Positions 44,280 to 59,768 of a stretch of 64,000 nt of DNA are shown piece after piece. Every line of letters starts with the position of its first letter. Position 1 is the first letter of the stretch. The stretch is taken from the NCBI GenBank assembly GCA_964618645.1, contig CAZUBW010000010.1:282-64281 (forward strand), given 5' to 3'. This DNA comes from an uncultured Bacteroidales bacterium. Its GTDB lineage: Bacteria > Bacteroidota > Bacteroidia > Bacteroidales > UBA10428. A model generated the notes under the pieces. The model was not told where the DNA came from, searched no databases, and saw only the letters and a list, made by a program, of their open reading frames with translations. The position numbers and the translations under genes were made by a program.

Positions 44280-45026
44280 ATGAGAGTAACTGCCTTCGTG
44301 TTATTTTGCCTGCTGTTGCCGTGTTCCTGGCTTTCGGCCCAGGACAGTCCCCAAGTAAAAGCTTTGCTGGCTGAAGCAGATGCGCTGGTTAATCAGCAAA
44401 TGCTGACTGAAGCGCTCGCAAAAACACGGGAGGCGGTTGATATTTCTCCCGCCAGTCATGCGGCCATGCAAAAGCAGATCAATATTCTTTTTCTGATGAA
44501 CGATGAAAAGGAATCTGTCAGGCTGGTTGACGAGGCCGTACGCCAATACCCAAACGAAGCCATGTATCATTACCTTCGGGGTATTATTAACAATGGCAGG
44601 CAGCGGTATTCCAAAGCGCTCGACGATTTTACCCGTGCCATCGACCTGAACCCGCCGGATATTCTCTACCGTTGTTACCTGGGCAGGGGGGTGAGTTATT
44701 TTAACCTTATCGAATACGATAACGCGCTCTCTGATCTTACCCTTTCCATAGAGCAAAACGATACAGTGGCAAGTGCTTTTTCGAGCCGTGCCATGGTTAA
44801 TTACGAGCTGCGTGACTATGAATCGGCCATTGATGATTTTCTGCGGGCACTTGACCTTTCAGCAGGAAGTTCAGCGCTGTATTTTAACCTGGGTATGTCA
44901 TATTACCGGCTCGAGCAGAAGGAAAAAGCCTGCCCGTATTTTCATAAATCCTGTACTATGGGGAATACCAATGCATGCCGCATGACCCTCATGGAGTGTG
45001 CCAAGGCAATACCCGTTATACCTTGA
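44280..45026 (+). CDS. TPR-repeat protein with Cys-rich C-terminus
   Basis: Signal peptide. Several TPR units (YSKALDDFTRAIDLNP, YDNALSDLTLSIEQN, YESAIDDFLRALDL). The C-terminus reads ACPYFHKSCTMGNTNACRMTLMEC. Confidence 0.75.
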   Translation: MRVTAFVLFCLLLPCSWLSAQDSPQVKALLAEADALVNQQMLTEALAKTREAVDISPASHAAMQKQINILFLMNDEKESVRLVDEAVRQYPNEAMYHYLRGIINNGRQRYSKALDDFTRAIDLNPPDILYRCYLGRGVSYFNLIEYDNALSDLTLSIEQNDTVASAFSSRAMVNYELRDYESAIDDFLRALDLSAGSSALYFNLGMSYYRLEQKEKACPYFHKSCTMGNTNACRMTLMECAKAIPVIP

Positions 45027-45070
45027 AAAATCAGACAGGCATCACCCGATCAGGAGAAACCAACGCGAGA

Positions 45071-47074
45071 ATGGACCTTTCGGTTATTATCGTCAATTAC
45101 AATGTAAAGTATTTTCTCGAACAATGTCTTCATGCGGTAATGATGGCTGTTCAGAAGCTTGAGGCCGAGGTTATTGTGGTGGACAATTGTTCGGCCGACG
45201 GTTCGGCTGGCATGATCAGGGAGAAATTTCCGCAGGTAAAGCTGCTGGCAAATGACGTTAATGTCGGATTTGCGAAGGCCAACAACCAGGCCATTACCTT
45301 GAGTTCGGGCAGGTATATTTTACTGCTCAATCCCGATACCGTGGTGCAGGAAGACACTTTTGTCCGGTGCCTCGGTTTCATGGAGGCTCATCCCGATACC
45401 GGCTGCCTGGGCGTAAAAATGATCGACGGCAAAGGTAATTTTCTCCCCGAGTCGAAAAGAGCGCTGCCAACACCGCTTGTAGCTTTTTACAAAGTATTTG
45501 GACTTTCGGCCCTTTTCCCAAAATCGCGAAAGTTTGGCAAATATCACCTGACCTATCTCGATCGGGACGAAATTCACCAGGTAGATGTTATATCGGGGGC
45601 TTTTATGCTTATCAACCGGCAGGCACTCGAAAAGACCGGGCTGCTTGATGAGGATTTTTTCATGTACGGCGAGGATATTGATCTATCGTACAGGTTTACC
45701 CTGGCCGGGTATAAAAATGTTTATTTTCCGCAAACCACCATCATCCATTACAAGGGCGAAAGCACCAAAAAAGGCAGTATAAATTACGTGCTGGTTTTTT
45801 ATAGAGCCATGATTATTTTCGCCCGCAAGCATTTTAAGGAAAGTACCTTCAGATATTATTCGCTTTTCATTCACCTGGCCATTTATTTCAGGGCCGGGAT
45901 ATCCATACTGACCAGGTTTATCAATAATATTATTACCCCTTTGCTGGATGCCGCGGTTATTTATGCGGGATACCTGCTGCTGCAACCAGTGTGGGCAAGG
46001 CATCATTTCGGACAGTCAGGTTATTATCCCCAGGAATTTCTGACTTTGGCGGTACCGGCTTATATAGTCGTCTGGATGCTGATGATCTTTATCTTCACCG
46101 GCTACGAGTCGAGGGTGAAAATCACCGATCTGCTGCGGAGTGTATTTCTGGGCACCCTTGTAATACTGGCAGGTTATGCCTTATTGCCCGAAAGCTGGCG
46201 ATTTTCGCGGGCGCTGATTATTCTTGGAACTTTATGGACATTGTTTGCAACAATTTCCATACGCTATTTGTTAAGTAGGATAAACCCTGGTTTTTTTTCG
46301 CTTGAATGTTTTAAAAGGCGGAAAAGGATTATCCTTATCGGGGATAAAAACGAAAACGACAGGGTTTATTCAATAATCAAACAAACACAGGTTGTGCCTG
46401 AATTAGTAGGTTATGTAAATGTGTCCGGCGGACACGACGATCCCCTGTTCATAGGGCATATCGGTCGTATCGAAGAAATTGTAAGGATCAACAAGGTTGA
46501 TGAAATCGTTTTTTGTGCTGCCAGCATGTCTTCGCAGGATATTATCCGAACCATGCTTCAGTTTACCGATAGCGGTGTTGCGTTCAAGATTGCGCCTCCC
46601 GAAAGCCTGTCGGTTATCGGCAGTAATTCAGTTGATACCAGCGGGGAACTCTACGTTTTACATTTCAACACTTTGTCGCGCCGGTTGAACAAACGCAAGA
46701 AGCGGCTTTTTGATATGTTATTTTCACTGGCATTGCTGGTCGTAAGCCCTGTAGCGTTGTTTCTGATCAAGCACCCTGCCGGACTAATCCGTAATATTTT
46801 AGGAACCATGTTGGGCATGACTTCCTGGGTGGGATACTATCATTCTACCGGTGGTCATCATCCGGGTTTGCCGGCTGTGAAACCGGGAGTGCTTACGCCG
46901 CTTGATGTTCCGGGTCTCAGTGGAACAACTACGGCATCTGTTGAGCAGGCTAATCTATTGTATGCAAAGGATTACCGGATTATGCACGACTTGAAAATTA
47001 CCCTTCGGAATTTTCCGTTGCTTGGACGCAAACCGGTAATACCCGATGAGGCCGGTTTAAATGAGAAAGAATAA
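45071..47074 (+). CDS. family 2 glycosyltransferase fused to a polytopic membrane / CoA_binding_3-like / truncated sugar-transferase-like region
   Basis: N-terminus LSVIIVNYN...VVDNCSADGS...NVGFAKANN...LLNPD is GT2. Next come about 5 TM helices, then a Rossmann-like segment (RIILIGDKNEN...VDEIVFCA). Then KRLFDMLFSLALLVVSPVALFLIK, as in Bac_transf enzymes. The start is moved to the ATG at 45071. Confidence 0.8.
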   Translation: MDLSVIIVNYNVKYFLEQCLHAVMMAVQKLEAEVIVVDNCSADGSAGMIREKFPQVKLLANDVNVGFAKANNQAITLSSGRYILLLNPDTVVQEDTFVRCLGFMEAHPDTGCLGVKMIDGKGNFLPESKRALPTPLVAFYKVFGLSALFPKSRKFGKYHLTYLDRDEIHQVDVISGAFMLINRQALEKTGLLDEDFFMYGEDIDLSYRFTLAGYKNVYFPQTTIIHYKGESTKKGSINYVLVFYRAMIIFARKHFKESTFRYYSLFIHLAIYFRAGISILTRFINNIITPLLDAAVIYAGYLLLQPVWARHHFGQSGYYPQEFLTLAVPAYIVVWMLMIFIFTGYESRVKITDLLRSVFLGTLVILAGYALLPESWRFSRALIILGTLWTLFATISIRYLLSRINPGFFSLECFKRRKRIILIGDKNENDRVYSIIKQTQVVPELVGYVNVSGGHDDPLFIGHIGRIEEIVRINKVDEIVFCAASMSSQDIIRTMLQFTDSGVAFKIAPPESLSVIGSNSVDTSGELYVLHFNTLSRRLNKRKKRLFDMLFSLALLVVSPVALFLIKHPAGLIRNILGTMLGMTSWVGYYHSTGGHHPGLPAVKPGVLTPLDVPGLSGTTTASVEQANLLYAKDYRIMHDLKITLRNFPLLGRKPVIPDEAGLNEKE

Positions 47075-47076
47075 TT

Positions 47077-48366
47077 ATGGCCATTGCTGAAGTTATTTTG
47101 CCTGCTATGGGCGAAGGTATTGTAGAAGCTACCATAACCCGCTGGCTTGCCATTGAGGGCCAGCAGGTGAGCGCTGATCATCCATTGGTTGAGGTAGCTA
47201 CCGACAAGGTCGATTCCGAGATCCCTTCGCCGGTGGAAGGCAGGATCATTAAACTGGTATACCGCGAAGGAGATATCCCCAAAGTGGGAGAGGTAATTGC
47301 CCTGATTGAAACCGACAAGCCTCTTGAAGCGGGTATTCTTTTGTCCGGGGCAGAAAGGGTTCCGTTGGATTCTGCCGGTATACCTTTACCCACAGTTCAG
47401 GTACCGGAAAAGATTCCTGTTTTACACCCTGGGGAAAACAAAAAACTTCTGATATCACCGCTTGTTCGGATGCTTGCACGGCAACGCGGAATTTCACAGG
47501 AAGAGCTTATACAGTTTAAAGGGACAGGAAAAGATGGCCGGGTAACACGGGAGGATATCAGCCATTATAACCGGGGTACTTACCACCAGGCTGTCAATAC
47601 CGACGATAATGCGGCGGCATTGTCATCAAATAACCATAAAGCAGTTCATGCTGGTCCGGACGATGAGATTTCCGAAATGGACCGTATGCGCCGGCTTATT
47701 GCCGGTCATATGTTGCATTCGAAGCAGGTAGCTCCGCACGTCACGGTTTTTGCAGAAGCTGATATTTCGGCGCTGGTCGCCTGGCGTGCAAATTACAAGG
47801 ATACGTTTTTAAGAAAAGAGGGTGCAAGGCTTACTTTTACACCTTTGTTTATAGAGGCCGTTGTGGATGCACTTAAGGCATTTCCCCGGATAAACGCTTC
47901 CGTTGCAGGTGATAATATCATTCTGCGCAGGAACATTAATATTGGAATTGCCACTGCATTGCCCGACGGTAACCTCATTGTACCCGTTATTAAAAATGCC
48001 GATCATGACAGCCTGGGAAGTCTCGCCCGTAAGGTCGAAGACCTGGCCGGCCGTGCCCGTGAAGGCTTGCTGCTGCCAGCCGAAATAAAGGAAGGCACAT
48101 TTACCATTACCAATATCGGACAGTATAACAACCTCACCGGAACCCCCATTATCAACCAGCCCGAATCCGCCATTCTTGCCCTGGGCACCATTACCAAAAA
48201 GCCCTGGGCGGTGAAATCCCACGGGGATTATGGGATAGCTGTCCGCGATATCATTATGTTGTCACTTACTTTCGATCATCGCATCATCGATGGTGCCCTG
48301 GGTGGAAGTTTCCTCAGTCGTGTTGTCAAAAATCTTGAGCAATCCGATCCTGAGCGGCAGGTATAG
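47077..48366 (+). CDS. 2-oxoacid dehydrogenase E2 component (dihydrolipoamide acyltransferase)
   Basis: Lipoyl domain with VEVATDKVDSEIPSPVEGRI. E3-binding segment SPLVRMLARQRGIS...GTGKDGRVTRED. Catalytic motif LSLTFDHRIIDGA. Confidence 0.92.
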   Translation: MAIAEVILPAMGEGIVEATITRWLAIEGQQVSADHPLVEVATDKVDSEIPSPVEGRIIKLVYREGDIPKVGEVIALIETDKPLEAGILLSGAERVPLDSAGIPLPTVQVPEKIPVLHPGENKKLLISPLVRMLARQRGISQEELIQFKGTGKDGRVTREDISHYNRGTYHQAVNTDDNAAALSSNNHKAVHAGPDDEISEMDRMRRLIAGHMLHSKQVAPHVTVFAEADISALVAWRANYKDTFLRKEGARLTFTPLFIEAVVDALKAFPRINASVAGDNIILRRNINIGIATALPDGNLIVPVIKNADHDSLGSLARKVEDLAGRAREGLLLPAEIKEGTFTITNIGQYNNLTGTPIINQPESAILALGTITKKPWAVKSHGDYGIAVRDIIMLSLTFDHRIIDGALGGSFLSRVVKNLEQSDPERQV

Positions 48367-48489: not shown

Positions 48490-48497
48490 TAAATTTG
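48490..48497 (+). promoter_or_regulatory. candidate -7 promoter box (TAAATTTG) for TPR-PD40 paralogue 1
   Basis: Exact TAnnTTTG match 19 nt upstream of the ATG at 48517, in a 150-nt AT-rich gap. Confidence 0.45.
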
Positions 48498-48516: not shown

Positions 48517-51500
48517 ATGATACCCTGTAAAACGCTCAAACCCTGCATTATCCTGGTTCTCTTTGTTTTGGCCTTTACACCGGCGGGCCTTGCCCAGGAG
48601 GATGGAAAGTTGAAGGATCTTTTCCTGGAAGCCGAGTCGTATTTTCTTTTTGAAGAATTCAAGGATGCCTTGCCCTTGTACCAGCGGATGCTGGCTGCCG
48701 ATCCCGAGAATTTCAACATCAGCTATAAAATTGGCATATGTTACCTGAATGATATTTACCAGGTTAGCAAATCAATTACCTATCTCGAGAAAGCCGTGCA
48801 AGGCACCAGTCCCGACAGTAAAACCAACAGTTTTAAGGAAAGATTTGCGCCACCCGAAGCGCTTTACTATCTGGGGAATGCCTACCGGGCCAATAATCGC
48901 CTGAAAGAAGCCATTACCACCTACCAGCAGTTTAAAGAAGTGCTCGATCCGCAGGTATACGATGCCGAGCTGGTTGACGAGCAGATTCAAGCCTGCCGGG
49001 TGGCAGAACAGCAACAGCAGCAACCTATGCATTACGTGGCAGTGAATGTTGGCGAGCCCATCAATAACCGCTTCGAAGAGTTAAATCCCGTTATCTCGGG
49101 AGATGAGAAAGTGATGTTGTTTACCCGCAGGTTGCAGTTTTACGATGCCGTATTTTATACACGCCGCGACAATGGCAGATGGACCGATCCAATTAACCTG
49201 ACACCCTCGTTCGGACTCGACGGAAACTCATACACTACCGGTCTTTCATACAACGGCGATGAAGTATTCGTATACCGGAGCGATAATTTTGACGGGAATT
49301 TGTATTCCAGCCGGTATCGTAACGGCAAGTGGTCCGAACTCGAAAAGCTGAACGGCAATATCAACACCAAATACTGGGAATCACATGCCACATTGTCAAA
49401 GGATGGCAAAACACTGTATTTTACCAGTAACCGTGAGGGTGGCTATGGCGGACTTGATATTTACCGCTCCGAACGAACCAGGGGGGGCGACTGGGGGCCG
49501 GCAGTAAATTTAGGCCCGGCTGTTAATTCGCGTTTCAACGAAGATACACCTTTTATAACAGAGGATGACAATGCGTTGTATTTCAGTTCAATGGGGCATA
49601 GCAACATGGGGGGGTACGATATTTTTTACAGTACCCGTTCAGGTGGCGGACAATGGTCTGCTCCGGTAAATATAGGATTTCCGCTCAATACCACACGCGA
49701 CGATCAGTTCTTTGTTCCTGTTGGTTCGGGAGCTTATGGATATTATTCGCGTTACGACGTTAACGATACGTATGGCATGCGCGATATATATAAACTTGAG
49801 GTTTTTACACCACTTCATCCACGCAAATTTATTCTCAACGGTGTTGCCAGGGTAGGTGGAGAGTCAAACCCCGATTATTCGCAGATTACTGCCACACTCG
49901 TCGATCAGAAAACGGGCAGAATTGTTGATCAGTCGCGTTTGAATGCCGATGGGTCTTACACGCTCAATGCCCTTTCGGGCGATTTTGATTTGCAGATGCG
50001 GGGCGAAGGCATACGCGAAAACCACGAAAGAATTTCCATACCCATTAACAATCCCTCCAATATTGTAGTTCACTCTTCGATGCTCACCGCAGCCGCCTCT
50101 GAAGCCGGAGCTGACGAAACGGTCACGGTTGGTATGGTTGAGGTTTCAGCCGGCCCCGAATTACATATTCCGGTGTCGAGCTACAACGTTACCACCAACG
50201 AATCCATTCCCATACGTCTCGACCTTGAAAGAAATACCAGGCTGAAGGTGGCTACCATTTTAAATGATACGCTGCTAAAAACTGAACATTTCGACGTGAA
50301 AAGGCGAAGGTTTGTTTACATGCTCACGCCGGAGCCCGGTATTAATAAATTGCGGTTTACGCTTATTAACAGTAAAGGCGACAGTACCATCCGGGAGGTA
50401 ACGGTTATGTACACGCCGATAGCCGAAGAACCCGAAGATGTGCCGCTGCCGGGCGACAGGGTACTGGCCGATAGTAACCGTTACTCGGGTTTACAACTGA
50501 TGGCCGAAGGCAATCTCGAAAAGTTCCTTGGACAAGCTGGAATAAAGAAAAGGAAGTTTGACAGTGTGGCAGATCTTTACGAATTCCTGTTAAAAAATGC
50601 AGCCGAAAATGGTTACACCGCGCAGGATGTGGATGAACTGATGACCCGTTTCCTTTCGCAGAAAGACCTGAACCTGTTTTATGACGAACTCATGCATCAT
50701 GCACCTGACAGTCTGTCAAGGTCGCTTGGCAGGCTTAATCCTGCAGCCAATCATATTTACACTGCCGAGTCCCTGCTCGACCATTTGTATGAGCATGCCA
50801 CCGGTGAGCAATACAGCCTGAAGGAGCTTCGTGAAACACTGTATAGCCTTGCTGCATTGCACCGCGATCCGCGAGAGCTTATCGGTTTGTTCGAATCGTA
50901 TGCAAGGGGTGAACTGGGCGCCATGCTGGGTACCATGGCGGAAAACTGGCAGGCATATCCCGATACCCGGTCTGTGGCCGATCACATTATGAAAGAGGCA
51001 GAAAATAAGGTGTTTCCGCTCGAACAACTCGATGAAATGTTGAGGCTGGCGGCATCCGACATCAATGCCCGTTTCCTTGAACAGGCACTGTTATACACCT
51101 CTTCTGAAAACCTTAGGCAGGCATTGCTTACATTAAATACCGAAAAGCAGGGTATCCGGAATTCCAGGGAGCTGATTAGTTACCTCCTTGGTAATGCCGA
51201 TAAGGGCAATTATTCGCGCCGGGAATTGCTTGAAAATATTGAGAAAATACGCAGAGACCCCTATTATTACATTGATCTGCTTCGTAAGATGTTGGCGGAA
51301 AGGGCATCAGGAACACTCAAGGAGTTTCTGCAGGAGATTGATGTGAGGAGTCTCAGGCTGACCACTTTCGAGGATCTTTTGGATTACCTGTTGAACCAAT
51401 CGCAGTTCCGCGATTACAATCGCGAAATGGTGTACCAGTTGCTCATTGATATCATCAATCCGCGTAATGTGGCCGAATTTCTCGAAATGCTCAGGGTGCA

Positions 51501-51810
51501 TGCCTGTCAATCCATAGTCGATGCACTTGATGCAGCCACCAGTCAGGAGTTTTCAACCCCCATTGAGGTATTGCAATACCTGTTGTCGGTTGCTGCGGAA
51601 TATCATTTTACCGAACGTGATCTGCTGCGAGCATTGCTGAAAATGCTGCTTCAGCAGGGACCCGATGCAGGGACCGTGGATGAAAAGCGGGGTGGCTGGC
51701 TTTCGGGTATCGATAGGCCTGCCCTGGTAACCTCGCTGGTGGTGGTTAATGCCCTGATCATATTGTTGTTGGTTTTATTTATTTTGCGAAAAAGGCGGAA
51801 GAATGAATAG
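48517..51810 (+). CDS. TPR + PD40 (TolB-like beta-propeller repeat) protein, paralogue 1, with long helical-repeat C-terminal region and C-terminal TM anchor (1097 aa)
   Basis: Signal peptide. TPR segment (YKIGICYLN, YYLGNAYRANNRLKEAITTYQQF). PD40-type repeats (LYFTSNREGGYGGLDIYRS, LYFSSMGHSNMGGYDIFYS). The C-terminus ends LVVVNALIILLLVLFILRKRRKNE. Confidence 0.85.
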   Translation: MIPCKTLKPCIILVLFVLAFTPAGLAQEDGKLKDLFLEAESYFLFEEFKDALPLYQRMLAADPENFNISYKIGICYLNDIYQVSKSITYLEKAVQGTSPDSKTNSFKERFAPPEALYYLGNAYRANNRLKEAITTYQQFKEVLDPQVYDAELVDEQIQACRVAEQQQQQPMHYVAVNVGEPINNRFEELNPVISGDEKVMLFTRRLQFYDAVFYTRRDNGRWTDPINLTPSFGLDGNSYTTGLSYNGDEVFVYRSDNFDGNLYSSRYRNGKWSELEKLNGNINTKYWESHATLSKDGKTLYFTSNREGGYGGLDIYRSERTRGGDWGPAVNLGPAVNSRFNEDTPFITEDDNALYFSSMGHSNMGGYDIFYSTRSGGGQWSAPVNIGFPLNTTRDDQFFVPVGSGAYGYYSRYDVNDTYGMRDIYKLEVFTPLHPRKFILNGVARVGGESNPDYSQITATLVDQKTGRIVDQSRLNADGSYTLNALSGDFDLQMRGEGIRENHERISIPINNPSNIVVHSSMLTAAASEAGADETVTVGMVEVSAGPELHIPVSSYNVTTNESIPIRLDLERNTRLKVATILNDTLLKTEHFDVKRRRFVYMLTPEPGINKLRFTLINSKGDSTIREVTVMYTPIAEEPEDVPLPGDRVLADSNRYSGLQLMAEGNLEKFLGQAGIKKRKFDSVADLYEFLLKNAAENGYTAQDVDELMTRFLSQKDLNLFYDELMHHAPDSLSRSLGRLNPAANHIYTAESLLDHLYEHATGEQYSLKELRETLYSLAALHRDPRELIGLFESYARGELGAMLGTMAENWQAYPDTRSVADHIMKEAENKVFPLEQLDEMLRLAASDINARFLEQALLYTSSENLRQALLTLNTEKQGIRNSRELISYLLGNADKGNYSRRELLENIEKIRRDPYYYIDLLRKMLAERASGTLKEFLQEIDVRSLRLTTFEDLLDYLLNQSQFRDYNREMVYQLLIDIINPRNVAEFLEMLRVHACQSIVDALDAATSQEFSTPIEVLQYLLSVAAEYHFTERDLLRALLKMLLQQGPDAGTVDEKRGGWLSGIDRPALVTSLVVVNALIILLLVLFILRKRRKNE

Positions 51811-53800
51811 AATTGTACTTGTCCTGATCCTGATTTTAACTGTTACTTATCCGCTGAGGGGACAAAAAATTGTTCCCACACCCGAAGACCTTTATGCCGA
51901 TGCCGGGGAATTTATGGAATCGGGCGACTATGCCGATGCCCTGCCGCTTTTTCTGACCTTAAAGGACCGGGGGTATGCAACAGCAAATATCAATTACCTC
52001 ATTGGCGAGTGTTACCTTAATTTGCCGGGTTTGAAAACAAAGGCCATTCCCTTTCTTAAGGAAGCCATCAACAATGTTTCGGCGCGTTATTCCGGCACTT
52101 CTCTTGCTGAAGAAGCGGCACCAGCCCGGGCTTTACTATTCCTGGGGATTGCCTGCAGGCTGAATTACGACTTTGACAATGCCCTGATGTACTTTAACAG
52201 TTATATGCAAAACCTTGATGATACGGATATTGAAAACCGGCGAATGGCGGAGTATCACATTGAACGATGCCGTAATGCCCGCGATTTGATGGATGCCCCG
52301 GCCCTTTACACGGCCGACACGCTTCCTTTGCAAATCAACACCACCTTCTCCAATTTCAACCCTTTGGTAACACCCGACGAGAAGGTGATGTATTATATGA
52401 ATCAACTGAAATTCTACGACGCTGTTATGCGGGTTCAACAATCGGGTACCGGCTGGAGCGAACCTGAGAACCTTACGCCGCTTATCAAATCCGATGGTGA
52501 CCATTATGTAACCGGAACTTCATCCGATGGTGATGGTTTGTTGCTTACCTGTTACGATCCTTATATGGCCGGCGAGTTGTACACAACTACTTTCAAGGAG
52601 GGCACCTGGAGCCCGTTGCAAAAGATGGAAGGTATCAATACCGTGTTCAACGAAACGCACGCCTCTTTATCCCCCGATGGTAAATGGCTTTATTTCACAA
52701 GCGACCGAAAGGGCGGATACGGGGGGCTCGATATCTACCGCTCGGCATTGGATCAGCAAGGTAAATGGAGTACCCCTGTTAACCTGGGACCGCTCATTAA
52801 CAGTTCCTATAACGAAGAATCACCCTTTGTCACCCCCGATGGACAAAAGTTATTCTTTAGCTCGCAGGGACATTACAACATGGGAGGGTACGATATCTTT
52901 TTTTCGCAACACGATGAGGATGGGCGATGGCTTCCTCCGGTGAATGTTGGATATCCGCTGAATACAACGGATGACGACCTTTTTTATGTTCCGCTCGATA
53001 CAGGCAGTATTGCTTATCAGTCCAGGTTTTCCGAAATAACAGCCGCCCAGGATATTATCAGAATTAAGGTCAGTGCTTACGGCAAGCCTGCAAGGTATAC
53101 GCTTAACGGCAAAATTAACCTGGCGGCGGATTCGTTGTTCAACCCCTCGGATATCACCGTTACCTTTGTTGAAAGAAAGGTTCAGGATACGCTTTCGGTT
53201 AAACCATTGAACAACGACGGAACATTCAGGCAGAAGTTACCCGGAGGATCGTATTTATTGCACTTCACGGATGGTGATAAATCGTTGCTGGAGAAGAATT
53301 TCGATATCCCCGAATATTTTCCGCATGGCAACCTGGTGTTTACCGACAGTATCACTGTTACACCAGCTGTAATGGCTGTGCGCGACACCCTTTACCTGCG
53401 GGATATCCGTTTCGCCTTTGATAAAAGCAACCTGACACAAGACCAACAGCAATACCTTGGCCAGGTGGCTCAGCTACTCAAGGCCCATCCGGGACTTACT
53501 ATACAGGTGAGCGGGTATACCGATGCGCTGGGGAACGCGCAATACAATCTTGGATTGTCGCGTAAACGTGCCGGAGAAGTTGCCGGATTCCTGACAGACC
53601 AGGATATTGGCGAAGAAAGGATTGCTGTGAAAGCATATGGTGAGGATCATCCCGTTGCTCTTAATCGCTTGCCCGACGGAAGTGATAGCCCGGTTGGCAG
53701 AAGTTATAACAGGCGCGTTACCTTCATGGTGTTCAATGTTCCCGAAAAGTTGGTTGTTATTGGTGTTAAGGATGTTCCCGGCGAATATTTACAGCACTAA
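51803..53800 (+). CDS. TPR + PD40 + OmpA-domain protein, paralogue 2 (665 aa)
   Basis: Same N-terminal architecture as paralogue 1. The C-terminal OmpA_C motif is IQVSGYTDALGNAQYNLGLSRKRA...NRRVTF. The start overlaps the upstream stop by 8 nt. Confidence 0.88.
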   Translation: MNRIVLVLILILTVTYPLRGQKIVPTPEDLYADAGEFMESGDYADALPLFLTLKDRGYATANINYLIGECYLNLPGLKTKAIPFLKEAINNVSARYSGTSLAEEAAPARALLFLGIACRLNYDFDNALMYFNSYMQNLDDTDIENRRMAEYHIERCRNARDLMDAPALYTADTLPLQINTTFSNFNPLVTPDEKVMYYMNQLKFYDAVMRVQQSGTGWSEPENLTPLIKSDGDHYVTGTSSDGDGLLLTCYDPYMAGELYTTTFKEGTWSPLQKMEGINTVFNETHASLSPDGKWLYFTSDRKGGYGGLDIYRSALDQQGKWSTPVNLGPLINSSYNEESPFVTPDGQKLFFSSQGHYNMGGYDIFFSQHDEDGRWLPPVNVGYPLNTTDDDLFYVPLDTGSIAYQSRFSEITAAQDIIRIKVSAYGKPARYTLNGKINLAADSLFNPSDITVTFVERKVQDTLSVKPLNNDGTFRQKLPGGSYLLHFTDGDKSLLEKNFDIPEYFPHGNLVFTDSITVTPAVMAVRDTLYLRDIRFAFDKSNLTQDQQQYLGQVAQLLKAHPGLTIQVSGYTDALGNAQYNLGLSRKRAGEVAGFLTDQDIGEERIAVKAYGEDHPVALNRLPDGSDSPVGRSYNRRVTFMVFNVPEKLVVIGVKDVPGEYLQH

Positions 53801-53867
53801 ACACAGGTAACCGTATGTGTAATTGCAAATCGGACGGATATAATTAGCTATCCTGTTGTTAAATTAT

Positions 53868-53875
53868 TAAATTTG
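53868..53875 (+). promoter_or_regulatory. candidate -7 promoter box (TAAATTTG) for TPR-PD40 paralogue 3
   Basis: Exact TAnnTTTG match 23 nt upstream of the ATG at 53899. The octamer is identical to the one at 48490. Confidence 0.45.
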
Positions 53876-53898
53876 CTATATACATAAACTTACCGCAC

Positions 53899-55770
53899 AT
53901 GAAAACAACGTTATTCATTGCTTTCTTATCTTTGTCGGGCCTGACCCTGTTTGCCCAGGAAAGGACACAGGCAGAACTTAAGGAATTTTTCTATGATGCG
54001 GAGTTCTTCTTTGCCCAGGAAGAATACGTAGATGCGGTGTATGATTACCTTGAACTTTATAATAACGGATTCAGTGACAATGGCAATATCAATTACCGGA
54101 TAGGAATTTGCTATCTGAACATCCCCGGACAAAAGGAAAAATCGATACCCTACCTGCTCGAAGCTGTTAAACAAGTTTCAGAAAAATATAAAGAAAGTAC
54201 TATTAAACAAAAAGCAGCTCCCGTTGATGCCTATTTATTTTTGGGGAACGCCTACAGGGTTAATAACCAGTTGAACAAAGCCATTGAGGCCTATAACAAA
54301 TACAAGGAAATTGCCAGTACCGCAGAAGAGCTGAAATATGCCGATCAGCAGATTGCAGCCTGTAACCTGGCCATCACTCAGATGGGAAGTCCAAAGCAGG
54401 TTAAATTCACCAACCTGGGTGATTCAATTAACGGTATTTCCTCCAATTATAAAGGGGTGGTTTCCGGTGACGGCAGTTTGCTGGTTTACATGAACGAACT
54501 GCCTTTTTACGATGCGGTATATACCTCAACATACAGGGACAACGGTTGGTCGTCGCCCGTAAATATTACACCGCAGATTCAGTCGGATGGCGATCAATAC
54601 GTTACGGCTGTTTCCCACGATGGAAAAAAAATGTATCTCACCCGCGAGGACGCTTTTAACAGCGATATATATACCAGCACTTTCGAAAACGACCGTTGGA
54701 CCAAATCGTTACCACTGGCCGGAACAGAAATCAATACCAAGTTTTGGGAATCCCATGCATCGGTTTCACGCGATGGCAAAACACTTTATTTTACCAGCAA
54801 CCGTAAAGGAGGCTTGGGGGATATGGATATTTACGTTACCAAAATGCTCCCAACAGGTGTTTGGGGCGATCCCGTAAATCTTGGGCCGGTTGTCAATACA
54901 CAGCTGAACGAAGACACGCCTTTTATCACTGAAAACGACAGCATCCTGTATTTCAGTTCACAAGGCCACCAAAGCATGGGTGGATATGATATTTTCGTAA
55001 CCCGGCTGAACGCTGTAGGAGAATGGTCGAAGCCTGAGAATCTGGGGTATCCTGTTAACACAACCGACGACGACCTGTTTTATTATCCCTGGAGCAACGG
55101 CAGAATAGGCTACCTCTCGCGGATAGAAACCGACGGAAAAGGTAAGGAAGATTTGTATGCAGTTCAGCCTGTAGGTGATTTACCCCTCGATGAACTGATC
55201 GCCTCGGTTTTACATCCTTCGCCAATAGCCGTTCCACCTGCGCTTACCGAAGAAAAGCGTGCAGCGGCGGAAGAAAAGCCCGTTGAAGCACCTGAAGCTG
55301 CTGAAGAAAAGGAACCTGCAGAAGAACCGGCAGAGGAACCCAAGGTGCCTGCTACTGTTGAGCTTGATCCCGTTTATTTTGCATTCGACAATGCACAACT
55401 AACGGAAGCCGGAAAGGCGCAACTCGACAAACTGATAGGCCTGATGAATGATTTTCCCATTATTCGTGTGAGGCTTGTCGGGCATGCCGATGCAAAAGGC
55501 CCGGCAGAATACAACCTTAGATTGTCCGAAAAACGGGCTGTATCAGTAATGCAATATCTGACTTCGCGGGGTATTCAGGCTAGCCGCATGGAGACAAAGG
55601 GATTGGGTGAGAAAAACTTTGCAGCAGTCAATTCAAACCCCGATGGTACCGATAATCCCGAGGGCAGAAAGCTGAACCGCAGGGTTGAATACGAAATTGT
55701 TGGTGAAAACGATAAGGTATTGATCATTCGCGCTACACCTGTTCCTGAGCGCCTGAAATTTAAAGAGTAA
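53899..55770 (+). CDS. TPR + PD40 + OmpA-domain protein, paralogue 3 (623 aa)
   Basis: Same architecture. An acidic/Ala-Glu-Pro linker (EEKRAAAEEKPVEAPEAAEEKEPAEEPAEEP) precedes the OmpA_C domain (VRLVGHADAKGPAEYNLRLSEKRA...NRRVEY). Confidence 0.88.
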   Translation: MKTTLFIAFLSLSGLTLFAQERTQAELKEFFYDAEFFFAQEEYVDAVYDYLELYNNGFSDNGNINYRIGICYLNIPGQKEKSIPYLLEAVKQVSEKYKESTIKQKAAPVDAYLFLGNAYRVNNQLNKAIEAYNKYKEIASTAEELKYADQQIAACNLAITQMGSPKQVKFTNLGDSINGISSNYKGVVSGDGSLLVYMNELPFYDAVYTSTYRDNGWSSPVNITPQIQSDGDQYVTAVSHDGKKMYLTREDAFNSDIYTSTFENDRWTKSLPLAGTEINTKFWESHASVSRDGKTLYFTSNRKGGLGDMDIYVTKMLPTGVWGDPVNLGPVVNTQLNEDTPFITENDSILYFSSQGHQSMGGYDIFVTRLNAVGEWSKPENLGYPVNTTDDDLFYYPWSNGRIGYLSRIETDGKGKEDLYAVQPVGDLPLDELIASVLHPSPIAVPPALTEEKRAAAEEKPVEAPEAAEEKEPAEEPAEEPKVPATVELDPVYFAFDNAQLTEAGKAQLDKLIGLMNDFPIIRVRLVGHADAKGPAEYNLRLSEKRAVSVMQYLTSRGIQASRMETKGLGEKNFAAVNSNPDGTDNPEGRKLNRRVEYEIVGENDKVLIIRATPVPERLKFKE

Positions 55771-55776
55771 TCATTC

Positions 55777-57072
55777 ATGCGCAGGTTAGTTCTTATAGGC
55801 TGGCTTTTTCTCCTGCCGGTTGGCTTGTTTGCACAAGCAACGGGTGAAAACAGCAGGGAATTTTTCGACGAGGGCATCTATTTTTTTTCCCGCGAGGATT
55901 ACGGCGAAGCGGCTTACTATTTCCGCCGGTTGTTGGAAAATCACCCCGATAACAGCCATTATAATTTTCTGCTGGGTGAGAGTTACCTGAATATACCCGG
56001 GAGTGAATCACTTGCTGTTCCTTTTCTCGAGAAAGCTACAAAATCGACTGTCGAGAAAAACAAATACAGGGGACGGGATTATAACGAGGATGATGCACCC
56101 TTGCATGCCTGGTTTTACCTGGGTAACGCTTACAGGATTAGTGGCAGGCTCGATGATGCCCTCAATGCCTACAGCACCTTTGTCAACTCGCCATTTTATT
56201 ATGGCAATTACAACCTGACTGTGGTGGAAAACGAGATCAAATCGTGCGAGAGGGCAAAAATAATTATGGACAGTCCTATCGATGTGGTTTTTGAGAAGCT
56301 CGACAGTACGGTGAATTCCACTTCCGCTGAGTTACATGTGGTGGTTTCAAAAGATGAGCAGTCGATGGTGTTTATCCGGCGGTTGAAGTTTTACGATGCC
56401 ATTTTGTGGACTACAAAAAGCAATGGTGTGTGGGGCCAGCCGGTCAATCTTAATCCCCTGGTAGGATCCGACGGTGAGTTTTACCCGGTTTACTTATCAC
56501 GGCAAGGCGATGAACTTTACCTGGTAAAAGCAGGAAATGTCAGCAGTGACATCTTTGTCTCTTACTTTCGCAATGGTACCTGGACAAAAGCTGAAATGCT
56601 CAACAGGCATATTAACACGCTGGCCGACGAAACATCAGCCTGTTTATCAGCCGACGGTCAGACCTTATGGTTTACAAGCGCCCGTAAAGGTGGAGCAGGT
56701 GGGCTCGATATATATTACGCACACCGGGATAATAACGGCCAATGGGGAAAAGCACGTAACGCCGGTAAGACTATCAATACACCGTTTGACGAGGAAAACC
56801 CTTACCTGTGTAATCACGACGAAATATTATTCTTCAGTTCCAGGGGACATTACACCATGGGGGGTTACGATGTTTTTTTCGCTTCACGCGATGGAAAAAC
56901 ATGGAAAACACCCGTGAATATAGGCTATCCGATTAGCAATACTGCTGATAATACAGGTTACGTACCCGTACAGGCAGGCAAAGCTGGCTATATTGCTGTA
57001 ACAAATGATAAAGACGGAACGGCTGAGGATATCTTTAGGGTAGTCCTAAAATCTCACATTCCTGCACCCTGA
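55777..57072 (+). CDS. TPR + PD40 protein, paralogue 4 (431 aa, no OmpA domain)
   Basis: Signal peptide, a TPR segment, and the PD40 motifs LWFTSARKGGAGGLDIYYA and LFFSSRGHYTMGGYDVFFA. It begins 6 nt after paralogue 3. Confidence 0.85.
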   Translation: MRRLVLIGWLFLLPVGLFAQATGENSREFFDEGIYFFSREDYGEAAYYFRRLLENHPDNSHYNFLLGESYLNIPGSESLAVPFLEKATKSTVEKNKYRGRDYNEDDAPLHAWFYLGNAYRISGRLDDALNAYSTFVNSPFYYGNYNLTVVENEIKSCERAKIIMDSPIDVVFEKLDSTVNSTSAELHVVVSKDEQSMVFIRRLKFYDAILWTTKSNGVWGQPVNLNPLVGSDGEFYPVYLSRQGDELYLVKAGNVSSDIFVSYFRNGTWTKAEMLNRHINTLADETSACLSADGQTLWFTSARKGGAGGLDIYYAHRDNNGQWGKARNAGKTINTPFDEENPYLCNHDEILFFSSRGHYTMGGYDVFFASRDGKTWKTPVNIGYPISNTADNTGYVPVQAGKAGYIAVTNDKDGTAEDIFRVVLKSHIPAP

Positions 57073-57073
57073 T

Positions 57074-57604
57074 ATGGCTGAGTCTGTGATAATTTTACGG
57101 GCGCCCGAACCCGAAGATCTTGAATTACTTTATTTGTGGGAGAACGATCCTGAAATATGGCAGGTAAGTAATACCATCACCCCTTTTTCGAAGTATATTC
57201 TCAGGCAATACATTGAGAATTCGCACCTCGACATTTACCAGACCCGCCAGTTGCGTTTAATGATCGATGTCCGCGAAAACGAGTCGACCCTGAAAACCAT
57301 TGGTACCATTGACCTGTTCGATTTTGATCCTTATCATCATCGCGCCGGTGTTGGTGTGCTCATAGGCGATAAAACAAACCGTAACAAGGGCTATGCCTCC
57401 ACGGCGCTGAAGCAGCTCATCGACTATTGCTTTGGCACCTTGCAACTTCACCAACTCTACTGCAACATTACCGTGGGCAATGACGACAGTCTCAGGCTCT
57501 TTGAGAAATGCGGCTTTGCCATTACCGGACGCAAAACCGACTGGATCAGGCAGGGCAGTGCATACGCCGAAGAACTTTTGCTACAGCTCATTAATAAGCG
57601 TTAA
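57074..57604 (+). CDS. GNAT family N-acetyltransferase
   Basis: 176 aa. The acetyl-CoA motif region is RAGVGVLIGDKTNRNKGYASTALKQLIDYCF, followed by NDDSLRLFEKCGF. It starts 1 nt after the upstream stop. Confidence 0.85.
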   Translation: MAESVIILRAPEPEDLELLYLWENDPEIWQVSNTITPFSKYILRQYIENSHLDIYQTRQLRLMIDVRENESTLKTIGTIDLFDFDPYHHRAGVGVLIGDKTNRNKGYASTALKQLIDYCFGTLQLHQLYCNITVGNDDSLRLFEKCGFAITGRKTDWIRQGSAYAEELLLQLINKR

Positions 57605-57704
57605 TGAAGTGTTAATTTGATGCCTCTTGCTTTTTATGATTCTTTTTTTGTAAATTAGCTATAGGACAAGAAGATTGCTGTGTAAAATTCTATACCACCA
57701 ATCT

Positions 57705-59768
57705 ATGCAAAAAGCCAAAAGATGGTTTCTTTTATGGGTTTTGTGTTATTTGACTATTCTGACTTTTGGCCAGCAGGAAGCTGCGCTTGAAGCTGTATTG
57801 GATGCAGGCGATATAAAAAAGCTCACAAAAGCAGAGGAATACAAAGGAAATGCCGACAAGTTAATTGAAGAAGCCGCACGGTTGAATATGGAGGAACTAA
57901 CTGTCGGCTCTGATGCCTCCTTAAACGAAAAATCCCGTCAACGTAAGGTTGAACAGCTTCAGAATCAGGCACTGCAAAAATACCTTGAAGCAGCTACATG
58001 GCTCGAAAAATGCAACGAGGTTAAATTTACCGTTTACCGTGATTATCTCAACCGGTTTTGGGATGAGCACGATGGCGAAGAAGAGGCTTACCTCAACGAA
58101 AAACTGATGGAGGAACAGGCCAGCGATCATTTTTTCCAGGCCTTAAATTACAGGCTCGAAGCCAAAAAAATGGATGCCGGCTATGCAAGGGTGGAAAAGC
58201 TTAATGAGGCCAATGCCCTCGAAGAACAGGCAATCCGCAAACAAGTGGATGCCTTGCTGGTATACCATCAATTGCAACCGGGGACAACCGTGACCGATAC
58301 TTCCCCGGATTTATTAACGGAGCCCGCTGAGGAACAGGCAGCGCCCTATGATGAGCCAGGCATCACGGATTATGTAGCCTATCAGGCAGATACTTCTGTT
58401 ATGGTTGCCGGAACAGAGAGTACCCCCGAAAACTACGTCCGGCCACAAACCTCTGAACCGGCATATGTTCCGGAAATCACAGCTCAACAAGCACCGCAGG
58501 AGCGTAAAACCATTCCGGAGAATATTACCCTCGACCAGGAGGTTATTGATGCCTATAACCGATATATGGCATCGGGGATGTTTACCGATACCACGCTTTC
58601 TACCGGCCATATTGCAGGACTGACCGGTTTTGAAACCGACCGGGTGTTGCAGCTCTGGTACGAATATCGCTATGGGCAACCATACCCCGGCGAAGCACCA
58701 GCATTGACCGATACCGTGAAACCAACAGAACCGGCAACGGTTATTGCAGCAACTGATCAGCCTGATGCCGCTGAAACGGCCGGAGGCGAACCTGTTATAT
58801 CAGATGAAACAGAAGACGAACCTGTTATGCAGGAGGATGCAGCAGAGGAACCGGTAATTGGTATTGTCACCGACGAGAACAGGGGACAACTGGTGCCTGC
58901 GGATGAAAACGTAATATACAGGGTGCAGATAGCCGCCAACCGGACCGAGTTAACGCAGCGTGCACTAAGCAAAATATACTACGGAAGTAAGAATGTGGAG
59001 ATGATCAGCGAGGGAGGCTGGTACAAATACGCTGTGGGTGATTTCAACAGTTACGAGGAGGCTTCCCGTTTCCGTAAAGAGAGTGGCGTTAGCAATGCTT
59101 TTGTAGTTGCCTACCGCAAGGGTACACGACTGTTAACGCCCGGGACAGAAGAAGTGGCTGAAACTCCGGCGGCAGTTTTTCCTGCCGGCGAAGCGCGCTT
59201 GCCCGAAGGCCTGATTTTTAGGGTACAGGTGGCTGCAAGCAGGGTTCCGCTGAGCATGGCACAGTTCCGGCGGATATACGGAGGAAATCTTCCCGTTGAA
59301 ATGATTTCAGAGGAAGGCTGGTACAAATACCAGCTGATGGGAACGCGGTTGTTTTCCGATACCAGGCAGCTATTGCAGTCGGTTAATGTCAGAGGGGCAT
59401 TTGTGGTGGCTTATTCCGGTGGCAGTAAGGTTAACCTGGCCGAGGCCGTGAGGAACACCAAGCCGGTTGAAGACAACGTGCGTAAGTTTGGTCGTAAGGG
59501 CTATGTGAACGAAATCGAGTTTCATGTTCAACTCGCGGCTTCACGTTCGGTAATGCCCCGGCAAGAGCTGCAATTGTTGTATAATGGCGCCGGGCCGGTT
59601 TCGGTAATATATGAGGATGGCTGGTACAAGTACCATTTGAAAGCCGGCAATTCTCCCGAACTTGCACTACAGCTAAGACAGGCATGTGGTGTTTCAAAAG
59701 CCTTTATAGTGGCTTACAAGCGTGGTCATAAACTCACGTATTACCAGGCAATCCAGGAATTGAAATAA
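57705..59768 (+). CDS. SPOR-domain protein (three C-terminal SPOR repeats)
   Basis: Signal/anchor (WFLLWVLCYLTILTFGQQ), then a coiled/acidic linker. Three about 75-aa repeats follow, of the form [YF]RVQ[IV]AA(N/S)R...GWYKY...AFVVAY. The ATG at 57705 is preferred over the TTG at 57675. Confidence 0.85.
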   Translation: MQKAKRWFLLWVLCYLTILTFGQQEAALEAVLDAGDIKKLTKAEEYKGNADKLIEEAARLNMEELTVGSDASLNEKSRQRKVEQLQNQALQKYLEAATWLEKCNEVKFTVYRDYLNRFWDEHDGEEEAYLNEKLMEEQASDHFFQALNYRLEAKKMDAGYARVEKLNEANALEEQAIRKQVDALLVYHQLQPGTTVTDTSPDLLTEPAEEQAAPYDEPGITDYVAYQADTSVMVAGTESTPENYVRPQTSEPAYVPEITAQQAPQERKTIPENITLDQEVIDAYNRYMASGMFTDTTLSTGHIAGLTGFETDRVLQLWYEYRYGQPYPGEAPALTDTVKPTEPATVIAATDQPDAAETAGGEPVISDETEDEPVMQEDAAEEPVIGIVTDENRGQLVPADENVIYRVQIAANRTELTQRALSKIYYGSKNVEMISEGGWYKYAVGDFNSYEEASRFRKESGVSNAFVVAYRKGTRLLTPGTEEVAETPAAVFPAGEARLPEGLIFRVQVAASRVPLSMAQFRRIYGGNLPVEMISEEGWYKYQLMGTRLFSDTRQLLQSVNVRGAFVVAYSGGSKVNLAEAVRNTKPVEDNVRKFGRKGYVNEIEFHVQLAASRSVMPRQELQLLYNGAGPVSVIYEDGWYKYHLKAGNSPELALQLRQACGVSKAFIVAYKRGHKLTYYQAIQELK

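Follow-up and report, generated by a model that had tools for sequence, protein, structure and literature searches.

The array of TPR-PD40 genes

The analysed window, a stretch of 64,000 nucleotides from an uncultured Bacteroidales bacterium, contains at positions 48517-57072 four co-oriented open reading frames (all features given here lie on the + strand), namely P1 (48517..51810, 1097 aa), P2 (51803..53800, 665 aa), P3 (53899..55770, 623 aa) and P4 (55777..57072, 431 aa). The spacing claimed in an earlier note on this DNA matches the ORF coordinates: the ends of P1 and P2 overlap by 8 nt, P3 and P4 are separated by 6 nt, and a gene for a GNAT acetyltransferase (Acetyltransf_3; 57074..57604) begins 1 nt past P4. 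These tight junctions are consistent with co-transcription. Upstream of the array lie a gene for a single fused protein in which a GT2 domain is joined to a polytopic membrane region and a CoA_binding_3 domain and which ends in a degenerate, sugar-phosphotransferase-like part (44975..47074) and a lone 2-oxoacid dehydrogenase E2 gene (47077..48366), whereas genes for a SPOR-repeat protein (57675-59768), Wza (59797-60579) and Wzc (60616-63027) follow downstream. The previously noticed GT2, SPOR, Wza and Wzc neighbors are confirmed at the domain level and are treated here as the context of the array, not as its core.

The four proteins have in common a module of about 430 aa that consists of a signal peptide, a TPR region and a PD40 propeller. 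This shared N-terminal plan is recovered alike from the ORFs, from Pfam (TPR and PD40 in each protein, OmpA only in P2 and P3) and from the alignment of P1-P4, in which all the motifs quoted earlier are present. The pairwise identity across the head is 35-37%, and P1 matches P3, P2 and P4 with E-values of 1e-113, 1e-105 and 1e-90, respectively; by these scores, the homology is far above the chance level. The propeller part of the head is more conserved than the TPR part (66 invariant columns of 260 vs 20 of 144). P1-P4 are true paralogues with exchanged anchoring modules, and their heads are ancient copies of the TPR-plus-propeller module found in the cell-wall anchor PorE.

The octamer TAAATTTG is located 20 nt before the P1 start codon (48490..48497) and again upstream of P3 (53868..53875). 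Both copies conform to TAnnTTTG, the Bacteroidota -7 promoter consensus. With 5 occurrences in the window vs 6.5 expected, the exact octamer shows no enrichment, so that the identity of the two boxes by itself is not significant; it is their position and conservation that give them meaning. TAnnTTTG precedes P1 in 85-94% of the orthologous loci, compared to 5% at the P1-P2 junction, and about 90% of the loci have it ahead of P3; at the tight junctions of the array it is rare. The identical boxes do precede P1 and P3 as previously described but are ordinary -7 elements rather than a special regulatory signal. Two transcription units, P1-P2 and P3-P4-GNAT, are predicted to start from such ordinary promoters, the P1 promoter being predicted as separate from GT2-E2.

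Anchoring modules of the four paralogues

All four proteins are predicted to be Sec-exported and cleaved by signal peptidase I, with Gln at +1. A lipobox or any other outer-membrane anchor was found in none of the four sequences, and hence only attachment to the inner membrane and to peptidoglycan can be read from them; the earlier description of the system as envelope-spanning claims more than this. Apart from the signal peptide (residues 7-25), the only hydrophobic segment of P1 is a C-terminal TM helix (residues 1071-1089; 51727..51783) with a conserved Asn inside it, followed by RKRRKNE. The signal peptide, the TM helix and the basic tail are retained in 71 of the 73 P1 orthologues (906-1494 aa), and P1 is predicted to be a type-I inner-membrane protein that lies mostly in the periplasm.

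The C-terminal helix with its RKRRK tail had been recognized previously, but the extra region that sets P1 apart is about 630 aa long, not about 500. It starts with two beta-sandwich (CRD/Ig-like) domains (residues 437-632; 49825..50412; AF2 pLDDT about 90) that resemble tandem Ig/FN3 pairs in a Foldseek comparison and show a weak match to Pfam CarboxypepD_reg (E = 0.035). An all-alpha domain of about 390 aa (residues 659-1046; 50491..51654) comes next and is joined by a linker to the TM helix. This domain is built from 5.5 four-helix repeats in tandem, each about 66 aa long, whose profiles match each other in register, and was modeled with a pLDDT of 92.5 and a pTM of 0.91; the AF2 models of the stalk are confident overall (pLDDT 85.6 and 92.5). 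No Pfam family and no PDB structure (best E = 0.41) matched the alpha-repeat domain, which is new and without a known relative in either database.

Pfam bears out the reported presence of OmpA_C domains in P2 (residues 536-625) and P3 (residues 493-583) and the lack of one in P4. P2 has the full PorE-type architecture, TPR-propeller-CRD-OmpA_C, and its CRD region matches the P1 profile (E = 5e-8), whereas P3 lacks a CRD and carries instead an acidic, Pro/Glu-rich linker of about 60 aa before OmpA_C. The peptidoglycan-binding motif D-x8-N...LSxxRA, which is reported to be functionally important in PorE (PMC12773672), is complete in both proteins, with the same spacing as in the PorE of the same genome. 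P4, with its signal peptide, TPR and PD40 regions only, is predicted to be a soluble, anchor-free periplasmic head.

Family placement and conservation

The family is not uncharacterized, as had been supposed: NCBIfam models place all four proteins in the PorE/CHU_0125 superfamily, for which curated models and functional studies exist (PMC7192894, PMC12773672, PMC5891637). P1-P4 score 104-220 bits against PorE (NF052230, cut-off 600 bits) and 154-234 bits against CHU_0125 (NF053607, cut-off 620 bits), the latter being the curated family with the highest score in each case. Identification of any of them as the PorE of the T9SS was rejected given that the scores are below the cut-offs and that the true PorE of this genome (683.7 bits) is encoded on another contig. 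The genome also encodes 13 PorP/SprF proteins and lacks a canonical TolB.

Like PorE (PG1058) of Porphyromonas gingivalis (PMC7192894, PMC12773672), P1-P4 possess a TPR and PD40/WD40 propeller head and are predicted to be exported to the periplasm by Sec; P2 reproduces the complete PorE domain order, and both P2 and P3 retain the Asp/Asn/Arg peptidoglycan-binding motif. Unlike PorE, however, they are predicted to lack lipoprotein acylation, P1 has a stalk and an inner-membrane anchor in place of OmpA_C, P4 is free of any anchor, and the genes form a fixed multi-gene array with no PorP partner gene nearby. CHU_0125 shares the domain plan of P1-P4 but is encoded by a single gene, without inner-membrane-anchored or free paralogue partners. 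The resemblance to Tol-Pal pointed out earlier is real at the domain level, the TPR region being CpoB-like, the propeller TolB-like and OmpA_C Pal-like, and has been published for PorE, which is viewed as a CpoB-TolB-Pal fusion and proposed to be a compact Tol-Pal-like tether between the outer membrane and peptidoglycan (PMC12204202). Formally, the inner-membrane-anchored helical stalk of P1 is TolA-like and the free propeller of P4 is TolB-like. In contrast to the Tol-Pal system of Proteobacteria (TolA, TolB, Pal, CpoB), there are no adjacent genes for a TolQ/TolR motor, the anchor of P1 is C-terminal whereas that of TolA is N-terminal and the stalks are unrelated, the TolB N-terminal domain is missing from P1-P4, and Pal-type lipidation is absent.

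The gene order GT2-[E2]-P1-[P2]-P3-P4-GNAT is repeated in 80 Bacteroidales MAG loci, is shared by 24 congeneric genomes and persists at P1 identity as low as 33%; all carriers found are uncultured MAGs. The block is thus conserved as a unit, the pattern that the earlier note contrasted with random local duplications only. In the phylogenetic tree, the orthologues of each of the four proteins group in a clade of their own (SH-aLRT 96-100), apart from PorE, so that the anchor types have long been kept distinct. Judging from the tree, the P1, P3 and P4 clades are ancient. The P2 clade includes only nearer relatives, and P2 is absent from many lineages that carry the array, where it is dispensable; rather than belonging to an ancient four-member core, P2 is, by this phylogenetic evidence, a lineage-specific later addition. 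The combination of one TM-anchored, one or more peptidoglycan-anchored and one free member is repeated in more distant arrays (L134, L162, L163). The patchy distribution of the array, with P1-type proteins in about 17 of the 201 Bacteroidales genomes, shows that it is not essential to the envelope.

A candidate periplasmic tether

We propose, with moderate confidence, that these PorE-superfamily paralogues jointly form a multi-anchor periplasmic tether or scaffold. The head of P1 would be carried on a long stalk, made up of the two Ig-like domains, the 5.5-repeat alpha domain and a flexible linker, and rooted in the inner membrane by the C-terminal TM helix with the Lys/Arg tail in the cytoplasm; the heads of P2 and P3 would be held non-covalently on peptidoglycan through OmpA_C, and P4 would be a free head. 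By analogy with PorE, in which the propeller is implicated in binding the outer-membrane barrel PorP (PMC12773672) and OmpA_C binds peptidoglycan, the heads could recognize the same or a related partner in the envelope, or each other, and would thereby couple the inner membrane, the cell wall and possibly the outer membrane. As P1-P4 carry no outer-membrane anchor, the outer-membrane link is drawn purely by analogy.

The same kinship with PorE admits another, unlikely reading, in which P1-P4 are accessory T9SS anchors, each head docking a PorP/SprF-family outer-membrane shuttle with its secreted cargo and fixing it to the wall, on the model of P. gingivalis PorE-PorP-PG1035 and of the five operons of F. 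johnsoniae that encode a PorE homologue, an SprF-like shuttle and a type-B CTD cargo (PMC12618676). The true PorE and the 13 PorP/SprF genes of this genome fit such a role, as do the more than 20 non-lipoprotein PorE homologues of F. johnsoniae, some of them in cargo/shuttle operons (PMC7192894, PMC12618676), for which static cell-wall anchoring has been proposed (PMC12618676). The array, however, consists of paralogues and GNAT only, without a SprF/PorP or cargo gene: PorP/SprF genes are absent from the contig of the window, markers picked out no further conserved neighbor of this type in the 80 orthologous loci, and those PorP/SprF genes of the genome that adjoin PD40 proteins sit beside other paralogues, on C91 and C31. 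Inner-membrane-anchored and anchor-free members are also ill suited to fixing surface cargo to the wall.

It is similarly improbable that there is no joint machine and that the slot between GT2 and GNAT is merely a duplication-prone site gathering independent, partly redundant PorE-like peptidoglycan-binding proteins. Across Bacteroidales, the slot holds from 0 to 5 paralogues, with GT2 directly followed by GNAT in some genomes, P2 and fifth copies have been gained and lost among lineages, and other Bacteroidota carry PorE homologues in high numbers (PMC7192894); the variable copy number and the dispensable P2 could indeed indicate loosely redundant proteins. Against this stand the tight or overlapping gene junctions, the retention of the P1, P3 and P4 clades in order despite the low P1 identity, and the recurrence of the combined anchor types.

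Export association, suggested by the earlier note, turned out to be weak: GT2 lies upstream of the array in every locus with enough flank, the E2 gene intervenes in about half of the loci, and GNAT, weakly PseH-like or spermidine-acetyltransferase-like, closes the array in nearly all of them, but the presence of SPOR, Wza and Wzc is variable and the linkage to Wza/Wzc is lineage-specific. An accessory scaffold of polysaccharide synthesis and export, of the kind that periplasmic TPR proteins provide in synthase-dependent exopolysaccharide systems, would account for the flanking GT2 and SPOR-Wza-Wzc genes and for the weak resemblance of GNAT to PseH-type sugar N-acetyltransferases but is the least probable reading. 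Of the roughly 53 loci in which the sequence extends far enough, only 15 have Wza/Wzc after the array, and in 27 loci GNAT is directly followed by the housekeeping genes HSDR_N/holA. Moreover, GT2 is a single-copy gene in 156 of the 201 Bacteroidales genomes, mostly without any array, P1 appears to have its own promoter, and the genes around distant loci are not glycan genes but recR, a gene for a PLP-dependent Orn/DAP/Arg decarboxylase, holA and a rhomboid gene.

The type of role that we propose for the tether is exemplified by CHU_0125 of Cytophaga hutchinsonii, the loss of which harms outer-membrane integrity, with a leaky outer membrane and more OMVs (PMC5891637). We infer that P1-P4 would act in a physical complex with an envelope partner and would contribute to envelope integrity or spacing. 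The array probably ties the layers of the envelope together rather than exporting polysaccharide.

The array and its conservation

The four TPR-PD40 paralogues are encoded in the same orientation, P1 at 48517-51810 (1097 aa), P2 at 51803-53800 (665 aa), P3 at 53899-55770 (623 aa) and P4 at 55777-57072 (431 aa), and are followed, starting at 57074, by a gene for a 176-aa GNAT protein. The ORF map bears out the tight packing described in the earlier note, with an 8-nt overlap between P1 and P2, 6 nt between P3 and P4 and a single nucleotide between P4 and the GNAT gene; the gap between P2 and P3 is 98 nt. Pfam searches likewise recover the proposed domain plan, namely repeats of the TPR and PD40 types in each of the four proteins, with OmpA restricted to P2 (residues 536-625) and P3 (residues 493-583), and every motif quoted for the set in that note is found in the alignment of P1-P4. 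The common head, which consists of the TPR part and the PD40 propeller, is 35-37% identical across the first ~430 residues, and the E-values of P1 against P3, P2 and P4 (1e-113, 1e-105 and 1e-90, respectively) show that this paralogy is no chance likeness. Invariant columns make up 25% of the propeller vs 14% of the TPR part, a hint, but only a hint, that the heads might have a propeller ligand in common and diversified TPR contacts. All four proteins start with a signal peptide that has a Gln after the likely cleavage site (LA/QE, RG/QK, FA/QE and FA/QA, the slash marking the site), the pattern of Bacteroidota signal peptidase I substrates; a lipobox Cys is absent from the cleavage region in each of the four, where the Gln is invariably preceded by Ala or Gly.

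Within the same GTDB genus, essentially all of the 24 other genomes retain the four-gene order, at a P1 identity of 50-66%. A wider scan with one genome per species yielded 533 related stretches, and the best 80 of these, all from uncultured Bacteroidales or Bacteroidota MAGs, show throughout, in a phmmer-based map, the order GT2-[E2]-P1-[P2]-P3-P4-[extra copy]-GNAT, where brackets denote optional genes and GT2 and E2 are the two genes upstream of the array. Among the commonest orders are the full four-gene form (27 loci, 14 with E2 and 13 without) and the P1-P3-P4 form (15 loci, 6 with E2 and 9 without); a fifth paralogue is present in a few loci. In a maximum-likelihood tree of 110 head modules, the array proteins are split from PorE and from a 642-aa TPR-PD40-CRD-OmpA paralogue encoded on contig C81 of the same genome (SH-aLRT 98), and P1 (TM-anchored), P3 (OmpA), P4 (no anchor) and P2 (CRD and OmpA) form distinct orthologue clades (SH-aLRT 96-100), of which the P2 clade is limited to nearer lineages and is a weak sister of P4. 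The ancient core therefore comprises the GNAT gene and three heads, of which one is anchored in the membrane, one is anchored to the wall and one is free; P2 was added later. The block is thus conserved as a unit, as judged from the same-genus genomes, the best 80 loci and the tree, contrary to the outcome that the earlier note had named as refuting its reading. With a P1-tail profile, only ~17 of 201 genomes sampled evenly across the order gave clear P1-type proteins; the carriers found are all uncultured MAGs, sampled from bioreactors, sludge, digesters and other environments.

The membrane-anchored member and the predicted scaffold

Hydrophobic segments of P1 are limited to the signal peptide and to residues 1071-1089, which are followed by RKRRKNE. 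The signal peptide, the C-terminal TM helix and the Lys/Arg tail are kept in 71 of the 73 P1 orthologues, which range in length from 906 to 1494 aa; of the two exceptions, one is cut off where its contig ends and one runs on in a separate downstream ORF. The tail (residues 431-1097, 667 aa) was modelled from a 40-orthologue alignment with a pLDDT of 85.6; in the model, two beta-sandwiches (~437-525 and 555-632) are followed by an all-alpha domain (659-1046, where pLDDT exceeds 90), from which a disordered linker leads to the TM helix. Foldseek comparison of the 667-aa model with the PDB returned generic tandem Ig/FN3 pairs only. The first sandwich weakly resembles a carboxypeptidase-regulatory-like domain (Pfam E = 0.035), and its profile also matches P2 residues ~428-523. 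The alpha domain consists of 5.5 tandem units of ~66 residues with four helices apiece, each starting with the motif xxLhxYLLxxAxxxxY(T/S)xx(D/E)L, and profiles of single units match the other units in register with i-E down to 3e-9. Modelled alone, this domain reaches a pLDDT of 92.5 and a pTM of 0.91, matches no Pfam family at E <= 1 and has no match in the PDB by Foldseek (best E = 0.41, TM ~0.13); the combination of a confident model with no detectable structural relative makes it a candidate new fold family.

The residues that precede the TM helix (D[RK]P[AV]L) are constant within the genus only and, by eye, differ in distant orthologues, and in the absence of a conserved pre-TM motif we rejected an exosortase or sortase sorting signal (PEP-CTERM, LPXTG or GlyGly-CTERM). 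The simpler reading of the C-terminus is a plain membrane anchor, and the simplest reading of P1 as a whole is a type-I inner-membrane protein with a long periplasmic stalk that bears the head at its distal end. Midway along the TM helix (51727-51783, ...VVVNALII...), an Asn is, by eye, kept in orthologues down to ~40% identity, and distant orthologues have Gly-rich TM helices in its place; the Asn hints at helix-helix contacts that P1 might make in the membrane.

The combination of one TM-anchored, one or more peptidoglycan-anchored and one free member is recurrent. We lean towards the view that P1-P4 are a periplasmic scaffold set in which the same binding head, placed at three positions (on the inner-membrane stalk, at the wall and free), would couple the envelope layers. 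Our confidence in this reading is kept only moderate because no outer-membrane anchor, motor or enzymatic activity is seen in the four sequences. The alternatives, including those that involve type IX secretion (T9SS) and polysaccharide, rank lower. One of these holds that the paralogues are independent and redundant; the differences in copy number among loci are compatible with it, and the distinct, well supported orthologue clades kept together in a constant order make it improbable.

Affinity with PorE, CHU_0125 and Tol-Pal

In NCBIfam, P1-P4 fall into a single superfamily with two curated models, NF052230 (PorE family T9SS protein) and NF053607 (CHU_0125 family OmpA-like outer membrane integrity protein). 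The scores of P1, P2, P3 and P4 with NF052230 are 119.9, 198.7, 220.0 and 103.8 bits, below the cut-off of 600, and those with NF053607 are 153.7-233.5 bits, below the cut-off of 620, which no gene of the genome reaches (best 470.9); the four proteins are therefore related to both families and belong to neither. The array was also rejected as the T9SS PorE of this genome, given these low NF052230 scores and the presence of a bona fide PorE gene on another contig (G000:C31:36745-38694, 683.7 bits). The PorE domain order of TPR, beta-propeller, CRD and OmpA_C is complete only in P2; P3 lacks the CRD, and P1 and P4 lack OmpA_C. PorE binds peptidoglycan through OmpA_C, and its propeller is implicated in contact with the outer-membrane barrel PorP (PMC12773672, PMC7192894); in Porphyromonas gingivalis, PorE function requires the peptidoglycan-binding residues D576 and N584 (PMC12773672). 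The equivalent residues are present in P2 (GYTDALGNAQYNLGLSRKRA) and P3 (GHADAKGPAEYNLRLSEKRA), with D-x8-N spacing and LSxxRA identical to those in the PorE of the same genome. Unlike P. gingivalis PorE, P1-P4 are not N-terminally acylated; a lipobox is no universal feature of PorE, however, since it is also missing from the PorE of this genome and from the F. johnsoniae homologues (PMC7192894). Loss of CHU_0125 leads to outer-membrane leakiness and hypervesiculation (PMC5891637).

Anchoring of T9SS cargo by P1-P4 would agree with the kinship to PorE; by gene neighborhood, none of the 13 PorP/SprF genes of the genome is located on the contig of the array, and we consider such a role unlikely. 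Two other PD40 paralogues (G000:C91:9816-12610 and G000:C31:21985-24267) directly adjoin PorP/SprF-family genes, which is the published arrangement of PorE homologues and SprF in F. johnsoniae (PMC12618676). A further paralogue (G000:C17:6230-8200) combines the TPR-PD40 head, by eye, with a coiled-coil and a C-terminal SPOR-like sequence that replaces OmpA_C, so that wall-binding modules of several kinds seem to be exchanged within the family.

A published proposal views PorE as a fusion of CpoB, TolB and Pal that would serve Bacteroidetes as a compact tether of the Tol-Pal kind (PMC12204202). In Bacteroidales, which lack canonical TolB/Pal, a trans-periplasmic system analogous to Tol-Pal, in which the P1 stalk would present its head to free P4 and to peptidoglycan-bound P2 and P3, could provide dynamic coupling of the inner membrane, peptidoglycan and outer membrane, used in envelope maintenance or division; the SPOR protein often encoded 3' of the array and the SPOR-ended paralogue elsewhere are compatible with a link to division. 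With the TolB equivalog (TIGR02800, cut-off 343 bits), which comprises an N-terminal alpha/beta domain and a six-bladed propeller, P2 scores 31.7 bits and the best protein of the whole genome 57.9, so that this genome is without a canonical TolB; with the Pal lipoprotein model (TIGR02802, cut-off 125 bits), the OmpA_C domains of P2 and P3, which have no lipobox, score 62.4 and 65.8. No MotA/ExbB or ExbD (TolQ/TolR-type) domains were found among the neighboring genes scanned (33317-63999), and P1 is anchored at the C-terminus, in contrast to TolA, which is anchored N-terminally. On balance, this specific form of coupling seems doubtful.

Genomic slot, likely transcription units and implications

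The GT2 protein (44975-47074, 699 aa) contains a GT2 domain, ~5 TM helices, a CoA_binding_3 domain and a polyprenyl glycosylphosphotransferase-like C-terminus that apparently has lost the middle part of its catalytic domain (NCBIfam EPS_sugtrans matched over 2-280 of 445 only). The E2 gene (47077-48366) encodes the lipoyl, E3-binding and catalytic domains of a 2-oxoacid dehydrogenase E2, with no E1 or E3 gene adjoining it; roughly half of the orthologous loci have this gene, as do many arrayless Bacteroidales GT2 loci, and the GT2-E2 gap has a median of 15 nt across loci. The GT2 fusion protein is found as a single copy, 45-55% identical, in 156 of the 201 genomes searched with the P1 profile. 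Most of 60 retrieved GT2 loci, almost all of them from genomes lacking a strong P1 match, contain GT2 or GT2-E2 and nothing else relevant, and in four GT2 is directly followed by GNAT. In 14 of the 60, 1-4 TPR-PD40 paralogues come after GT2/E2, with GNAT closing 10 of the 14 arrays and a C-terminally TM-anchored member again present in some (L134, L162 and L163). The site of the array is thus a conserved slot of the chromosome, bounded by GT2(-E2) and GNAT, in which the copy number varies from 0 to 5.

Among ~53 loci with enough sequence 3' of GNAT, SPOR-Wza-Wzc follows in 15, SPOR alone in 11 and HSDR_N/holA, which in the window comes after Wzc, directly in 27; in distant loci, the flanking genes are recR, holA and those for a PLP-dependent Orn/DAP/Arg decarboxylase, a rhomboid protein and an AlgH-like protein. 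The association with polysaccharide export is therefore lineage-specific and no property of the array. Upstream of GT2, genes for two secreted proteins with no Pfam or NCBIfam match (42537-43244 and 43356-44201, one with a Tyr/Pro-rich run, YYNPYYYGNPYYSPYYSPYY) and a 248-aa TPR protein (44280-45026) are kept in nearer relatives only, and lie outside the unit because recR and the decarboxylase gene replace them in distant loci. A role of P1-P4 as an accessory of polysaccharide export, which the earlier note had considered beside a Tol-Pal-like one in view of the surrounding GT2, SPOR, Wza and Wzc genes, is the least probable of the alternatives, and the array was rejected as a capsule/EPS locus component, given the linkage to Wza/Wzc in only 15 of ~53 loci and a GT2 that is mostly arrayless in the 156 genomes.

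The SPOR protein (57675-59768) has, by eye, a signal or anchor and a coiled-coil-like N-terminal part, followed by a long acidic linker and three SPOR-like repeats. Past the window end, after holA, a 207-aa ORF (G000:C10:64834-65457) shares 66% identity with a protein of a related locus (L042) in which Pfam confirms a rhomboid domain, and this gene family is present in the conserved downstream neighborhood of 33 loci. The type-I single-pass topology predicted for P1 is typical of rhomboid substrates, and it is only a speculation that P1 might be released or regulated by intramembrane proteolysis.

The boxes TAAATTTG, located 20 nt 5' of the P1 start codon (48490-48497) and 24 nt 5' of that of P3 (53868-53875), are identical as originally reported; their identity is not in itself significant, since the window contains the exact octamer no more often than expected (5 found vs 6.5 expected), and what counts is the positional conservation of TAnnTTTG. 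The boxes fit this sequence, the Bacteroidota -7 promoter consensus, and the motif is found 5' of P1 in 85-94% and of P3 in ~90% of orthologous loci, compared with only 5-7% at the P1>P2 and P4>GNAT junctions. This distribution points to GT2-E2, P1-P2 and P3-P4-GNAT as the likely transcription units. In four sludge "metatranscriptome" runs (X12-X15), the region is present only as 23-35 kb contigs of uniform depth, ~97% identical to the window, which come from a related strain, probably with DNA carry-over; in sludge runs, the SPOR gene of a related strain is shortened in frame by 30 nt at 58787.

Published work already covers the protein family, the multiple copies found in some Bacteroidota and the resemblance to Tol-Pal; in the literature searched, there is no description of the conserved array, of an inner-membrane-anchored member with an alpha-repeat stalk, or of the combination of TM-anchored, peptidoglycan-anchored and free members. 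The carriers found, all of them uncultured MAGs, set a practical limit to work on the array. Canonical Tol-Pal is absent from Bacteroidota, and PorE-type proteins, the current candidates for coupling of the envelope layers, have been studied so far only singly, as outer-membrane- and peptidoglycan-linked components of type IX secretion. The array yields hypotheses on head-to-head or head-to-barrel contacts and on P1 as a stalk that crosses the periplasm. A deeply conserved set in which one head recurs on a stalk rooted in the inner membrane, bound to peptidoglycan and unattached in the periplasm suggests that this family can work as a multi-component system.
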